NCBI RefSeq assembly: GCF_044324875.1
Contig: NZ_CP172185.1
Strand: one strand, 5' to 3'
Origin: Escherichia coli
Lineage (GTDB): Bacteria; Pseudomonadota; Gammaproteobacteria; Enterobacterales; Enterobacteriaceae
DNA length: 64,000 nt
Shown in pieces: positions 3,014-38,883 of the stretch (position 1 is the first letter of the stretch; each line of letters begins with the position of its first letter). The position numbers and the translations under genes were made by a program. The notes below the pieces were generated by a model. The model ran no database searches, had not been told where the DNA came from, and saw nothing but the letters and a program-made list of their open reading frames with translations.

Positions 3014-4296
3014 TAAGCACCTCCAAGCGTCGCAAATGCAGGACCAAAGAATTCATCAGTAAACGTCTGGTAAAGTTCCATATCCTCAAGCGGCGGAACG
3101 GGCGTGTACTTGTAGCGGATACGCACGCGTCCCTGACGAAGTTCCGTGGTGCTGTTATCCACCACGTCATACCAGCACTCCGCACCAACGAGACGTCCTG
3201 ACGTAACCAGCGCATCCAGTTTTGCGCGAATTGCGCTTAACACGTCTTTCACATTAGCAGGGGTCAGCGGGGCATCAATCGTTTCAAACTGCGCTTCCGC
3301 AACAGAATCAGCCAGCACCTGAGCGGTTCGCGTGTACACCTCAAAGATATACGCCTTCGTTTCCGGCGTACGGTTGCCCCAGAAGCGGAAACCGTTACGG
3401 CGAATGATGGTGGTGATTTCCTTGTTGTTGAGATTGTTGGCATCGCTGTCTTCGGACTGAAGGGACCAGAACACCCGGCTGGAAATACCCAGCACATTTC
3501 TTACCGGCACGTTGGACAGCGATTTATGCCAGCCCTGTTCGTGGTCAATACGTGCACGTAAACCGCAGGCGTACGCCGCAGCCGGGAAGACCTCATTAGC
3601 GCCGGATTTCGGGTTATAGGCGATGAAGTCAGGCCAGAGCAGCATAAGTTCGCGCTCGTTAAATCTGGCGCGGTAGCTGATTGCATCAGCGGGCTTCTTG
3701 CAGTTGTGACAGCCCGCGTAGACAAATGCGCGAAGTTTTTCTGCAATTACACACAGGGATTTTGTGACAGCTTCAGTATCCAGTCCGGGAGCTGCGATGA
3801 TGCGCGGACGGTAACCGATGGCATCATCCTGTTCAGCTATCAGAAGTGCATACATACCGGTATAATTACCGTCGCCATCCGTGCCACCAATGACATACTG
3901 GTCCTGCGTTTTGTGTGGGTATACAGGATGTGCATCTTCAGACTCATCAATACCAAAAAATGCCCTGTCTTCAGGATCCAGATGACCGAATGATGTAACT
4001 CCTGTATCCGGGGCGCCCTGAGAACTGGCATCAGGAACGCGCACCACAATCACCTTCGTGCTCACCTGGTCGGCGACAGCCTTAAGCGATTTGTAAAGCG
4101 TCCCCTTTGTGCCGGCCTTACCCAGCACATCACTGACGCGGGTCAGCAGTGTGGGTTTGTTCAGCGGGAACAGAGTTTCATCCGCGTCATCTGCCGTAGC
4201 CACAATACCAATAACACTGGAATCCACATCATTAATGGCGGTGGCAAGGCCGGTACTTTCCCTTACGCGCGCACCATGAAAGCGTGTTTCACTCAT
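3013..4296 (-). CDS. P2-like contractile tail sheath protein (gpFI-like)
   Basis: Track ORF 3013..4443; the likely true start is ATG 4296 (MSETRFHGARV...), preceded by AGGGTG. 427 aa with conserved sheath motifs (GFRFWGNRT, YTPVPPLE). Confidence 0.8.
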   Translation of the reverse strand: MSETRFHGARVRESTGLATAINDVDSSVIGIVATADDADETLFPLNKPTLLTRVSDVLGKAGTKGTLYKSLKAVADQVSTKVIVVRVPDASSQGAPDTGVTSFGHLDPEDRAFFGIDESEDAHPVYPHKTQDQYVIGGTDGDGNYTGMYALLIAEQDDAIGYRPRIIAAPGLDTEAVTKSLCVIAEKLRAFVYAGCHNCKKPADAISYRARFNERELMLLWPDFIAYNPKSGANEVFPAAAYACGLRARIDHEQGWHKSLSNVPVRNVLGISSRVFWSLQSEDSDANNLNNKEITTIIRRNGFRFWGNRTPETKAYIFEVYTRTAQVLADSVAEAQFETIDAPLTPANVKDVLSAIRAKLDALVTSGRLVGAECWYDVVDNSTTELRQGRVRIRYKYTPVPPLEDMELYQTFTDEFFGPAFATLGGA

Positions 4297-33843: not shown

Positions 33844-36996
<3,153 letters not shown>

Positions 36997-37014
36997 TACA
37001 ACGTGTAATCACTA

Positions 37015-37038
37015 AGGCCGCGCAAGCGGCCTTTTTTA
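37015..37038 (+). terminator. Intrinsic terminator after acrB
   Basis: aaggccgcgcaagcggcc + T6. Confidence 0.7.
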
Positions 37039-37541
37039 TGCATAACCGACGAACATTAAGGAGTCATTGAACCACCAACTCAGGATCTCATACGAAAACC
37101 AGTATTAACCTCGCATAAAATTCATAAAAAATACTGATTGTTAGTTAATTTATATTAAGTAGCGCTAATAGATTTAATAATCCATAATCATTTAGAGGCT
37201 ATTCTTAATTATTTGCGGTAATTCTTTATTCATTCCTCGGTTATTACGTCATATTCAGAGCAATCCTGGTATTAGTGTCACCAATTTCATCTGGCGATAA
37301 TCCTGAAATGTTATGAATAGTTCGAGCAGACTGCTTTTACCTGCTGCGGGTTAGTGCTAGTATGAAAAAATGAGTCCTGTCCCGCTTCCTTCCTAATTGT
37401 AATTTTTCGTAATAATGCGATGAAAACCTGCAAAGAGTGGCTTATAGTTAAGCTAACAAACGAGAGGGCAAGTCCAGGTCAGTAAGTTTTTTCCATCCCG
37501 AAAGGTGTCCGTTAGTTCAACCACTAAGAAGGGGACGCGTT

Positions 37542-37916
37542 ATGGATGAATACTCACCCAAAAGACATGATATCGCACAGCTTAAGTTTCTCTGTGAAAC
37601 CCTGTATCATGACTGTCTTGCAAACCTTGAAGAAAGCAATCATGGCTGGGTTAACGACCCAACCTCGGCGATCAACCTCCAGTTGAATGAACTGATTGAG
37701 CATATTGCGACCTTCGCACTTAATTACAAAATTAAGTATAATGAAGACAATAAGCTCATTGAGCAGATCGACGAATATCTGGATGACACCTTTATGTTGT
37801 TCAGCAGTTATGGTATTAATATGCAGGATCTTCAGAAATGGCGGAAGTCAGGTAATCGACTATTCCGTTGTTTTGTCAATGCGACGAAAGAGAATCCTGC
37901 GAGTTTATCTTGTTAG
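37542..37916 (+). CDS. tomB: Hha toxicity modulator TomB
   Basis: 124 aa, immediately upstream of hha. Confidence 0.93.
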
Positions 37917-37941
37917 AATTATTACAACCATGGGTAGAAGT

Positions 37942-38160
37942 ATGTCCGAAAAACCTTTAACAAAAACCGATTATTTAATGCGTTTACGTCGTTGCCAGAC
38001 AATTGACACGCTGGAGCGTGTTATCGAGAAAAATAAATACGAATTATCAGATAATGAACTGGCGGTATTTTACTCAGCCGCAGATCACCGCCTCGCCGAA
38101 TTGACCATGAATAAACTGTACGACAAGATCCCTTCCTCAGTATGGAAATTTATTCGCTAA
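37942..38160 (+). CDS. hha: Haemolysin expression modulator Hha (H-NS co-regulator)
   Basis: 72 aa, [27 protein letters not shown]... Confidence 0.95.
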
Positions 38161-38331
38161 TAAATAATTCGCCTTCGGAGCTATAACCGGCTGTTTATTA
38201 AGAATTTTATACTTTTTCGCCATGAAGACATACCCTATGTGATCTTTATCACACAGATGTAATGGGAACGTTCTCTTCACTGACTTTTCGTCTTACTGTG
38301 TTGCCGCATTTTCAGCAACCGGAGGTCAGTA

Positions 38332-38883
38332 ATGAGCACAGAAAAAGAAAAGATGATTGCTGGTGAGTTGTATCGCTCGGCAGATGAGACGTTATCTCGC
38401 GATCGCCTGCGCGCTCGTCAGCTTATTCTCCGATACAATCATTCCCTGGCGGAAGAGCACACATTACGCCAGCAAATTCTCACTGATTTATTCGGTCAGG
38501 TGACAGAGGCTTATATTGAGCCAACGTTTCGCTGTGATTATGGCTATAACATTTTTCTCGGCAATAATTTTTTCGCCAACTTCGATTGCGTGATGCTTGA
38601 TGTCTGCCCTATTCGCATCGGTGATAACTGTATGTTGGCACCAGGCGTTCATATCTACACGGCAACACATCCCATCGACCCTGTAGCACGTAATAGCGGT
38701 GCTGAACTGGGGAAACCCGTCACCATCGGTAATAACGTCTGGATTGGCGGACGCGCGGTCATTAACCCTGGTGTGACCATTGGTGATAACGTCGTGGTAG
38801 CCTCAGGTGCAGTTGTCACAAAAGATGTCCCGGACAACGTTGTCGTGGGCGGTAATCCAGCCAGAATAATTAAAAAATTGTAA
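38332..38883 (+). CDS. maa: Maltose O-acetyltransferase
   Basis: 183 aa with hexapeptide-repeat acetyltransferase signature. Confidence 0.95.

Follow-up and report, generated by a model that had tools for sequence, protein, structure and literature searches.

Organisation of the acrB-tomB gap and of the promoter and leader of the tomB-hha operon in Escherichia coli

The tomB-hha gene pair of Escherichia coli lies downstream of acrB and is separated from it by a long AT-rich gap. The question raised by this locus is whether the gap is transcribed as a long regulated leader of the pair or is DNA lying upstream of a promoter. The locus was analysed in a stretch of 64,000 nucleotides of the E. 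coli contig NZ_CP172185.1 (assembly GCF_044324875.1), called the window hereafter, and the features found in it are collected in Table 1. An earlier note on this DNA, made from the letters alone, had described a tomB of 124 aa, an hha of 72 aa, 25 nt between them and about 545 bp of AT-rich DNA in front of them, and all these coordinates and lengths were correct, the acrB-tomB gap (36997-37541) being exactly 545 bp. The naming of the pair as Hha and TomB, an H-NS-modulating pair, was likewise borne out by the Pfam matches, which covered the two family profiles almost completely or completely, and by identity to the K-12 proteins. The tomB gene directly precedes hha in the same orientation and is separated from it by a short junction, which is the arrangement of an operon; across the 80 related loci compared, this junction was 23-28 nt long throughout. 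The upstream neighbour carries the annotation acrB in all E. coli genomes that matched, and we take its product to be the RND efflux permease. Of 5426 complete E. coli genomes, 5424 carried the locus, with 98-100% identity within the species; it is the standard, well-studied tomB-hha operon of the E. coli chromosome, and as such already known. Hha is a global co-silencer that acts with H-NS on horizontally acquired and virulence genes, and the wiring of its own operon is of interest for the Cpx envelope stress response, sigma-S holoenzyme binding, autorepression by Hha/H-NS, and the action of RNase E and a small RNA at the hha ribosome-binding site (RBS).

Table 1. Genes and non-coding features of the acrB-tomB-hha region, in window coordinates.
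Feature	Position	Strand	Description and source
acrB	33847..36996	+	ORF of 1049 aa; Pfam ACR_tran, E = 0
acrB intrinsic terminator	37014..37039	+	Hairpin 37014-37033 with 8-bp GC-rich stem and 4-nt loop, followed by T-run; terminator scan
72-bp Escherichia-specific insert	37045..37116		Directly 3' of terminator; GC 0.43
AT-rich spacer upstream of promoter	37117..37395		GC 0.337
Conservation island	37117..37156	+	Column identity 0.57-0.69; aligns with Salmonella minor start site at -430 (~37138)
Conservation island (37254-37270) and equivalent of Salmonella -267 start site	37254..37308	+	Alignment
CpxR-type direct repeat GTAAT-TTTTC-GTAAT, GTAATTTTTCGTAAT	37399..37413	+	Match to GTAAW-N5-GTAAW
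tomB-hha promoter	37420..37448	+	-35 ATGAAA (37420-37425), 17-nt spacer, -10 TATAGT (37443-37448); promoter scan
Transcription start site (A)	37455	+	K-12 +1, 53 reads
5' leader	37455..37541	+	87 nt; CCATCCC 37493-37499, Shine-Dalgarno AAGGGGA 37529-37535
tomB (ybaJ)	37542..37916	+	Hha toxicity modulator, 124 aa; Pfam YbaJ/PF10757, E = 1e-65, profile positions 1-117 of 118; PDB YmoB 2MN2, E = 2e-50 (2.3e-50 before rounding)
Internal hha start site within tomB	37827	+	115 nt before hha ATG; K-12 start site
25-nt spacer with hha RBS and second hha start site (37926)	37917..37941	+	AATTATTACAACCATGGGTAGAAGT; K-12 start site with 16-nt UTR
hha	37942..38160	+	72 aa; Pfam HHA/PF05321, E = 8e-40 (8.2e-40 before rounding), 135 bits with cutoff 25, profile positions 1-57 of 57

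The position of the transcription start decides how much of the gap can be leader. In K-12, the tomB start site was mapped with 53 reads and gives a 5'UTR of 87 nt (PMC3415461, supplementary file 2), and the K-12 sequence from -50 to +1 was found at 37405-37455 of the window with 0 mismatches. The hexamers of this promoter are identical to those given for tomB-hha by genomic SELEX (PMC3946193, Shimada 2014). Both hexamers were kept among 79 sequences while the spacer between them was variable, and the identity of the promoter across genera was 0.76. The major tomB start site of Salmonella has an 89-nt UTR and 87 reads (PMC3293720, Table S1) and aligns to base 37455 of the window, and the start site of Klebsiella, with a 97-nt UTR, comes from this same promoter (PMC3415461). 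In functional work, a fragment from -198 to -1 was sufficient for promoter activity as well as for repression by Hha, and Hha bound its own promoter in vivo (PMC2408971). In Salmonella, only the construct with the proximal promoter was active and the one placed further upstream in the AT-rich part was silent (PMC5133643). The start-site maps together with the sufficiency of the -198 to -1 fragment therefore indicate that about 400 of the 545 bp are promoter-upstream DNA, and the "long leader" of the earlier note shrinks to the 87-nt 5'UTR that begins at the mapped K-12 +1. The same note had taken the upstream region to be regulated, and this part stands, with CpxR, H-NS/Hha and the sigma-S holoenzyme as documented regulators, all acting on DNA. 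For the last of these, a ChIP peak labelled tomB was reported at 479920-480115 (PMC4447067). The numbering of U00096.2 differs from that of U00096.3 by an offset of 776 (tomB at 479558-479932 and 480334-480708, respectively), and after conversion from U00096.2 the peak falls on about 37359-37554 of the window. A placement of this peak in the hha-maa gap was considered and rejected, because in U00096.2 numbering it sits on the tomB promoter.

The possibility that the gap of about 500 bp is wholly transcribed as a long cis-regulatory 5' leader of tomB-hha, such as a riboswitch, thermosensor, attenuator or leader peptide, was weighed against these maps. A long gap was present in every genus examined, two upstream start sites seen by dRNA-seq in Salmonella (-267 and -430) coincide with the islands at 37254-37270 and 37117-37156, and in Yersinia a further start site lies more distally, at -188 (PMC13353760). 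Against this, the dominant start sites of E. coli, Klebsiella and Salmonella lie at -87, -97 and -89, respectively; the upstream Salmonella sites had 1 read in wild type, none were listed for E. coli or Klebsiella (PMC3415461), and the Salmonella construct over an upstream predicted promoter was inactive (PMC5133643). A permissive Rfam scan of 36500-38700 returned sub-threshold matches on the terminator hairpin only, the best with 22.8 bits against a gathering threshold of 66.8. Among 802 small ORFs on both strands of 77 gaps, no conserved one was found, the ORFs of the window being common to 1-4 related loci at most. The spacer also evolves at about the rate of four-fold degenerate sites, and the mapped leader folds no better than its shuffles. 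The start-site maps already refute this idea for the most part, and a leader running through the whole gap is very improbable. A 21-codon ORF over the promoter (37421-37486) was rejected likewise; it starts upstream of +1, is without a Shine-Dalgarno sequence and occurs only in loci that have this promoter DNA in common.

The earlier note had proposed to look in its leader for conserved structured elements or small ORFs, and none were detected by Rfam, folding, covariation or ORF comparison. The identity of the 87-nt leader across genera was 0.67, and the motif CCATCCC within it was near-invariant. The stability of the folded leader was equal to that of shuffled sequences (z = 0.00), and RNAalifold on 43 genera or species gave a consensus of -5.6 kcal/mol with 9 pairs, which were a 4-bp UCCC:GGGG helix and a 5-bp helix within the coding start only; no conserved RNA structure was thus found in the leader. 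The CCAUCCC of the leader RNA complements GGGAUG, the Shine-Dalgarno region of tomB, and the corresponding CAUCCC:GGGAUG anti-Shine-Dalgarno helix could pair in 96% of the cells compared, both sides being nearly invariant. This helix showed zero covariation and all 10 departures from it were uncompensated, which leans against pairing. Sequestration of the Shine-Dalgarno was measured as its ensemble unpaired probability relative to shuffled upstream sequence, and in 74 distinct leaders it was 0.333 against 0.368 (z = -0.18), showing no sequestration in this set.

The minor start sites known from Salmonella were placed on the window by alignment. The site P249 at -430 was covered by 1 wild-type read and by 3 reads from the ppGpp0 strain, and P248 at -267, which is repressed by ppGpp, had 1 and 17 reads (PMC3293720, Table S1). 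The promoters of the -267 and -430 sites coincide with the two best-conserved islands of the spacer (identity up to 0.65-0.69). No start site equivalent to that in 37117-37156 was present in the E. coli K-12 data set of Kim 2012 (PMC3415461), and the -10 element of the Salmonella -267 site (TATTGT) is not aligned in E. coli, where activity in the window is at most putative. Rare, longer tomB transcripts may arise from these upstream sites. An extended reading holds that the spacer is a selected H-NS/Hha platform, that its islands are stress-specific promoters which would fire when ppGpp or H-NS/Hha is lacking and yield leaders of 270-400 nt, and that CCAUCCC is a cis anti-Shine-Dalgarno or a regulator-binding element that would set the TomB:Hha ratio; we regard this as decidedly doubtful.

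The consensus of CpxR is GTAAA-N5-GTAAA. A repeat of this type, as is characteristic of the CpxR regulon, was found upstream of the tomB promoter, and it is the single match to GTAAW-N5-GTAAW in the whole 64-kb window. It was exact in 66 of 79 sequences and carried GTGAT as the second half-site in 12 others. The box begins 56 nt upstream of +1, a distance that is nearly invariant across genera. A CpxR motif trained on RegulonDB sites has been used in work on Yersinia, where the ymoBA promoter fragment bound CpxR~P in EMSA and reporter assays were positive (PMC13353760). In E. coli, RegulonDB counts both tomB and hha among the CpxR targets and the CpxR iModulon includes tomB, while tomB is absent from the direct CpxR targets by ChIP-exo (PMC7657598). 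From the repeat, its position and these records, we infer that the GTAAT repeat is a CpxR site in E. coli.

Upstream of this compact module, the gap begins with the acrB intrinsic terminator, which was its most conserved non-coding block (identity to the window of 0.89 among 76 Enterobacteriaceae loci) and leaves about 505 bp of the gap on its 3' side. The 72-bp insert that follows was gapped in about 90% of non-Escherichia loci, varied more among E. coli genomes than the DNA around it, with an identity of mostly 95%, and holds four of the eight differences between the window and K-12 in the gap. A repeat or mobile origin of the insert was rejected, as it is single copy per E. coli genome. The stretch from the terminator to the CpxR-type box is about 360 bp long and its sequence conservation was undetectable. 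The GC content of the whole gap was 0.382, that of the window being 0.523 and that of acrB 0.535. The earlier note had left its leader to be judged by conservation across strains. Within E. coli this was uninformative, the strains being 98-100% identical; across genera the terminator, the promoter and the 87-nt UTR were conserved and the spacer sequence was not.

What has stayed constant in the spacer is its length and composition, and the long gap is no chance peculiarity of this strain. The gap measured 435-559 bp in 76 of the 80 Enterobacteriaceae species loci, these being the ones with the acrB end on the contig, and the GC content of the spacer equivalent was 0.31-0.40 in 72 of 72 loci, against 0.53-0.60 for acrB. 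The tomB-acrB spacer is marked 'HNS' by Shimada 2014 (PMC3946193). The high-affinity H-NS 10-mer motif TCGATAAATT was not enriched in the gap, where one match with 2 mismatches was found, overlapping the CpxR-type box. The 10-11-bp periodicity of AA/TT in the spacer exceeded that of shuffles only slightly (mean z 0.49; p = 0.04 for the window), and A/T tracts were modestly enriched (5.3 against 4.2 in shuffles). The evidence on H-NS occupancy of the spacer consists of one table entry and the base composition.

These features have to be set against the view that the spacer is functionless neutral filler, which arrived with the AT-rich tomB-hha cassette or accumulated beside it and is tolerated between terminator and promoter. 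Such a view is in line with an identity across 72 other Enterobacteriaceae of 0.46 in the spacer as compared with 0.48 at four-fold degenerate sites in tomB, with frequent indels, including the Escherichia-only insert, with the sufficiency of the proximal 198 bp for activity and Hha repression, with the lack of enrichment of the H-NS motif in the gap, and with the Erwiniaceae, where the promoter is directly 3' of a different gene without such a spacer. Neutral DNA would be expected to drift to the genomic composition and to be deleted, so the constant length and low GC, kept in all of more than 70 species, argue against filler; the A/T tracts, the islands of 0.65-0.69 identity and the published H-NS mark (PMC3946193) point the same way. 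We consider neutral filler unlikely. The AT-rich spacer is probably an H-NS/Hha binding platform with weak secondary promoter-like islands, and we infer that it works through H-NS/Hha occupancy. As a separate observation, repression by Hha needs only the proximal 198 bp, so the distal part of the spacer may be functionless.

A further view is that the spacer hides an unannotated gene, for a small protein or small RNA on either strand, or a decayed third gene of the operon. Its best argument comes from Erwinia and Pantoea, which carry a conserved 117-aa ORF directly upstream of the tomB promoter with its stop codon inside the TGTAAT half-site, the two orthologues being 47% identical (E = 1e-32). 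The family of this protein was confined to Erwiniaceae (37 matches), and a tblastn search with the protein, covering the whole window and 78 Enterobacteriaceae spacers, had 0.24 as its best E. None of the 7 small ORFs of at least 12 aa in the window was common beyond 1-4 related loci, the spacer had no Rfam match, the gap of K-12 MG1655 carries no annotated feature, and the K-12 data set has no start site in the spacer on either strand (PMC3415461). A hidden gene is exceedingly improbable on these counts. A pseudogene remnant of the Erwiniaceae gene was rejected separately, the similarity being not significant.

Within the operon, hha has start sites of its own. The internal K-12 site inside tomB had 12 reads (PMC3415461) and its promoter sequence matched 37777-37827 of the window with 1 substitution, and the sequence of the K-12 site with the 16-nt UTR was found exactly at 37876-37926. 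RNase E cleaves in a region covering tomB's 3' end as well as the 5' end of hha (PMC4191395), and the prophage small RNA HnrS pairs with the hha RBS (bioRxiv 10.1101/2025.11.27.690950).

These results together make it very probable that the locus is a standard operon in which a terminator, an AT-rich spacer, a compact promoter module and an 87-nt leader follow one another. Sequence together with published data establishes where transcription starts and from which promoter, that the fragment from -198 to -1 suffices, that Hha represses its own operon, that tomB and hha have been assigned to the CpxR regulon in published lists and that CpxR~P binds the homologous promoter fragment of Yersinia. 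In this arrangement, transcription of acrAB ends at the acrB intrinsic terminator. The spacer of about 360 bp upstream of the promoter, AT-rich, poorly conserved and Escherichia-only in 72 bp, most likely provides low-specificity binding DNA for H-NS/Hha, through which Hha would exert negative feedback on its own operon. The conserved promoter module, with the CpxR-type repeat, the two hexamers and the +1, is followed by an unstructured leader with a strong Shine-Dalgarno at its end. For hha there are in addition two weak promoters inside the operon (37827 and 37926), and the hha RBS in the 25-nt junction is the site of action of RNase E and, in EHEC/EPEC, of HnrS. A large intergenic gap should thus not be taken for a leader, as here it holds an 87-nt UTR and the remainder is AT-rich promoter-upstream DNA. 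Earlier publications on the identical K-12 sequence already describe the wiring of tomB-hha, and the present analysis has little import beyond correct annotation. The comparative points are mildly new, namely the spacer length and AT content kept without its sequence, the position of the box, the Escherichia insert and the Erwiniaceae gene in place of the spacer.

The closest known system is tomB-hha of E. coli K-12 (b0461-b0460, formerly ybaJ-hha), which has the same order acrA-acrB-tomB-hha-maa-ylaC-pdeB, the same 25-nt junction, identical TomB and Hha proteins and the identical sequence from -50 to +1. The comparison with K-12, suggested in the earlier note, showed an equal 545-bp gap with 8 substitutions and 0 indels; over 1164 bp there were 13 single-base differences, the other 5 lying in tomB-hha and being synonymous or in the junction, and the structure was the same. 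In Salmonella Typhimurium, tomB-hha has been reported to form a type II toxin-antitoxin system with the promoter p922; it has the same major promoter and start site, and differs in being without the Escherichia insert (gap of about 497 bp) and in having two further start sites that are very weak. Binding of TomB to the proximal promoter was reported in Salmonella (PMC5133643), and tomB is reported to depend on rpoS in Salmonella and not in E. coli (PMC4447067). In Yersinia, ymoB-ymoA is the orthologous pair and YmoA acts with H-NS; the CpxR motif precedes the proximal start site (TSS2) by 56 bp, the distance also found for the box in the window, and two start sites were mapped at -188 and -106 (PMC13353760), compared with the one at -87 in E. 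coli. The Erwiniaceae tomB-hha has the TGTAATTTTTAGTAA box, the promoter and the pair with a short junction as in the window, and differs in not being 3' of acrB and in carrying the Erwiniaceae-only 117-aa gene, which ends inside the box, in the place of the spacer.

At the protein level, toxin-antitoxin systems whose antitoxin inactivates the toxin by chemical means form the class called 'type VII'. Hha/TomB is an oxygen-dependent system of this kind, and the window would encode the same one as judged from its translations, with Hha carrying Cys18 (...RLRRC18QT...). Hha is reported to be toxic on over-expression and TomB to neutralise it via oxidation of Cys18 (PMC5155140, PMC5133643), a reaction that TomB/YmoB promotes (PMC5155140). 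Hha binds the N-terminal domain of H-NS and enhances silencing, as known for the identical K-12 protein (e.g. PMC3686432).

The genes downstream of acrB constitute the known tomB-hha operon, and both its layout and its sequence are essentially identical to those of E. coli K-12 MG1655. The acrB-tomB gap of K-12 has the identical size and contains no annotated feature; the window differs from it there by 8 substitutions and 0 indels, and the TomB and Hha proteins of the two are identical. Bases 36900-38300 were matched at 98-100% identity in 5424 of the 5426 complete E. coli genomes. The tomB and hha coordinates, sizes, 25-nt junction and 545-bp gap reported in the earlier note were all exact, and its gene identities and the fact of regulation were correct. 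The GC content was 0.382 in the gap and 0.337 in 37117-37395; the window as a whole has 0.523 and acrB 0.535. One complete E. coli genome, that of strain Br_112_kylling (NZ_CP182371.1; L082, locus positions 4007-4039), has lost the acrB C-terminus, the entire gap, tomB and the hha start by deletion. In its annotation acrB is a pseudogene and hha encodes 60 aa; the strain is a natural example of AcrB and TomB loss.

Features of the acrB-tomB-hha region (window positions unless a locus is named; identity is to the window across the aligned loci)
Feature	Position	Size	Remark
acrB	33847..36996		
acrB-tomB gap	36997-37541	545 bp	
Canonical intrinsic terminator after acrB	37014-37033		followed by a T-run
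acrB terminator, aligned segment	37014-37036		identity 0.89
Escherichia-specific insert	37045-37116		gapped in ~90% of other loci
AT-rich spacer	37117-37390		identity 0.46
Promoter module	37391-37455		identity 0.76
Leader	37456-37541		identity 0.67
tomB	37542..37916	124 aa	Pfam YbaJ, 1e-65
tomB-hha junction	37917-37941	25 nt	
hha	37942..38160	72 aa	Pfam HHA, 8e-40
ORF upstream of tomB, Erwinia amylovora	L083 2004-2357	117 aa	
ORF upstream of tomB, Pantoea sp.	L084 2001-2354	117 aa	

The promoter scan returned ATGAAA-17-TATAGT at 37420-37448. The same hexamers were given as the constitutive tomB-hha promoter by Shimada et al., with the tomB-acrB spacer marked as an H-NS site (PMC3946193). In K-12, 53 reads define the tomB start mapped by Kim et al. 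(PMC3415461 supplement), which gives a 5'UTR of 87 nt. Their -50 to +1 sequence, TTTCGTAATAATGCGATGAAAACCTGCAAAGAGTGGCTTATAGTTAAGCTA, was found with 0 mismatches at window 37405-37455, which places the tomB +1 at the A at 37455. This promoter gives a 97-nt UTR in Klebsiella (151 reads; PMC3415461 supplement) and is the major start site in Salmonella, where the UTR is 89 nt (87 reads; PMC3293720 Table S1) and the site aligns to window 37455. Furthermore, Garcia-Contreras et al. showed that -198 to -1 is an active promoter under Hha repression and that Hha binds to its own promoter in vivo (PMC2408971); their forward primer matches window 37343-37362. Of three promoters predicted in Salmonella, the proximal one alone is active (PMC5133643), and the tomB/hha transcript was taken as -89 to +662 in the RNase E assays of Clarke et al. 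(PMC4191395). The mapped start sites and the reporter work together indicated that the transcribed leader is 87 nt and not about 500 nt, and the long leader read by the earlier note into the whole AT-rich gap was not borne out. Two upstream tomB starts are recorded in Salmonella dRNA-seq, at -267 (1 read in wild type, 17 in the ppGpp0 strain) and at -430 (1 and 3 reads, respectively; PMC3293720 Table S1). Their window equivalents, ~37295-37308 and ~37138, coincide with two islands of 0.65-0.69 identity in the spacer (37254-37270 and 37117-37156). Because upstream tomB starts are given for neither E. coli nor Klebsiella (PMC3415461 supplement), long-leader transcripts are at most minor, condition-dependent species.

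The conservation of the gap was monitored in 80 loci, one per species, from ~20 Enterobacteriaceae genera with TomB identity of 89-100%. The gap measures 435-559 bp in 76 of the 80 (those with the acrB end on the contig), and the tomB-hha junction 23-28 nt. The 76 loci having enough upstream sequence were aligned to the window as reference and identity was scored per segment. The identity of the spacer was close to that of tomB four-fold degenerate sites (0.48, a noisy benchmark of only ~38 sites), and thus its sequence evolves at an approximately neutral rate. The equivalent spacer nevertheless had a GC content of 0.31-0.40 in 72 of 72 measured loci, against 0.53-0.60 in their acrB 3' parts. 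The best-supported reading is that the spacer is AT-rich promoter-upstream DNA available to H-NS/Hha occupancy, which would add to the negative feedback that Hha is documented to exert on its own operon (PMC3946193, PMC2408971). Support for such occupancy is indirect: the high-affinity H-NS 10-mer is not enriched in the gap, AA/TT helical periodicity exceeds that of shuffles only slightly (window p = 0.04; mean z 0.49 in 77 species loci plus the window, 78 sequences), A/T tracts are modestly enriched (5.3 vs 4.2), and the proximal 198 bp are enough for Hha repression (PMC2408971). Given these weaknesses, neutral filler is kept as an unlikely alternative, against which the strict retention of the spacer's length and AT content speaks. 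The 72-bp Escherichia insert, directly 3' of the acrB terminator, is present in one copy in E. coli, is more polymorphic than its flanks (mostly 95% identity) and carries 4 of the 8 window/K-12 gap differences.

Conserved structured elements and small ORFs, the check proposed in the earlier note, were sought in the gap and leader by Rfam, folding, RNAalifold and ORF comparison, and all were negative. The best Rfam match (22.8 bits, gathering score 66.8; none near threshold) was located on the terminator, the 87-nt leader with the tomB start folded at -22.6 kcal/mol, equal to shuffles (z = 0.00), and the RNAalifold consensus of 43 sequences consisted solely of a UCCC:GGGG helix of 4 bp plus a short coding-start helix (total -5.6 kcal/mol). 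None of the small ORFs in the gap was conserved across genera. A near-invariant CCATCCC at 37493-37499 is complementary to GGGAUG, the sequence of the Shine-Dalgarno region in most genera; this helix showed no covariation, with 10 of 10 departing cells uncompensated, and the Shine-Dalgarno was no less accessible in 74 distinct leaders than with shuffled upstream sequence (0.333 vs 0.368, z = -0.18). A real regulatory role of CCAUCCC and of the kept length and AT content of the spacer is unlikely, and would be of modest interest if true.

Several features of hha are already known: the two internal starts of Kim et al. (PMC3415461 supplement), which map from K-12 to window 37827 and 37926; direct-entry RNase E cleavage where the tomB 3' end meets the hha 5' end (PMC4191395); pairing of the EHEC/EPEC prophage sRNA HnrS with the hha ribosome-binding site (bioRxiv 10.1101/2025.11.27.690950); and Cys18, present in the window translation, whose oxidation is promoted by TomB/YmoB (PMC5155140). 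The best promoter-like match of the region (10/12), TTCGCA-18-TATAAT at 37713-37742 (+) inside tomB, corresponds in position to the mapped Klebsiella internal hha start (170-nt UTR), whereas the E. coli starts are mapped elsewhere. Like the acrB-tomB gap, the hha-maa gap (38161-38331, 171 bp) is rich in AT (GC 0.40), and a hairpin resembling a terminator lies within it at 38234-38257 (- strand); in Salmonella dRNA-seq, ybaJ-hha and the next gene are annotated as a single operon, SL1344_0467-0465 (PMC3293720). Hha is at least 90% identical to that of the window at all loci except Enterobacter sp. EA-1 (L060, hha at ~3400), where a 56%-identical Hha, which may be a paralogue replacement, is encoded downstream of a 92%-identical tomB. 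Database proteins of ~200-205 aa carrying YbaJ (TomB) and HHA domains together (P0005, P0008, P0010, P0026, P0027, P0046, P0048, P0077 and others) appear to be TomB-Hha fusions; unlike these, tomB and hha of the window are in different reading frames, and the apparent fusions may be frameshift/deletion variants or gene-calling artefacts.

Across 79 sequences the promoter module reads AATTGTAATTTTTCGTAATA...(G/A)TGAAA...TTATAGTTA, with both hexamers conserved and a variable spacer between them. It includes GTAAT-TTTTC-GTAAT at 37399-37413, the sole GTAAW-N5-GTAAW match within the 64-kb window, which begins 56 nt upstream of +1. The direct repeat is exact in 66 of the 79 sequences, and 12 (the Citrobacter freundii group and one Kosakonia) carry GTAAT-N5-GTGAT. 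The CpxR consensus is GTAAA-N5-GTAAA, and by its sequence the repeat fits as a candidate CpxR site. The literature agrees in part with CpxR control: RegulonDB includes both tomB and hha in its CpxR list, tomB belongs to the CpxR iModulon, and tomB is absent from the direct CpxR targets by ChIP-exo (PMC7657598). A sigma-S holoenzyme ChIP peak named tomB (479920-480115, U00096.2; PMC4447067) converts to window 37359-37554, which is the tomB promoter.

In Erwinia and Pantoea, tomB-hha does not adjoin acrB, and a conserved 117-aa ORF belonging to no Pfam or NCBIfam family lies directly upstream of tomB, its stop codon forming part of the CpxR-type box (half-site TGTAAT). The idea that this gene left the enterobacterial spacer behind as a remnant was unsupported, as the family was found in Erwiniaceae only (37 database matches) and a tblastn search of 78 spacers plus the entire window with the protein gave a best E of 0.24. 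The ymoB promoter of Yersinia pseudotuberculosis has a CpxR motif 56 bp upstream of its proximal start site; the promoter fragment is shifted by CpxR~P, and promoter activity rises when CpxR is activated (PMC13353760).
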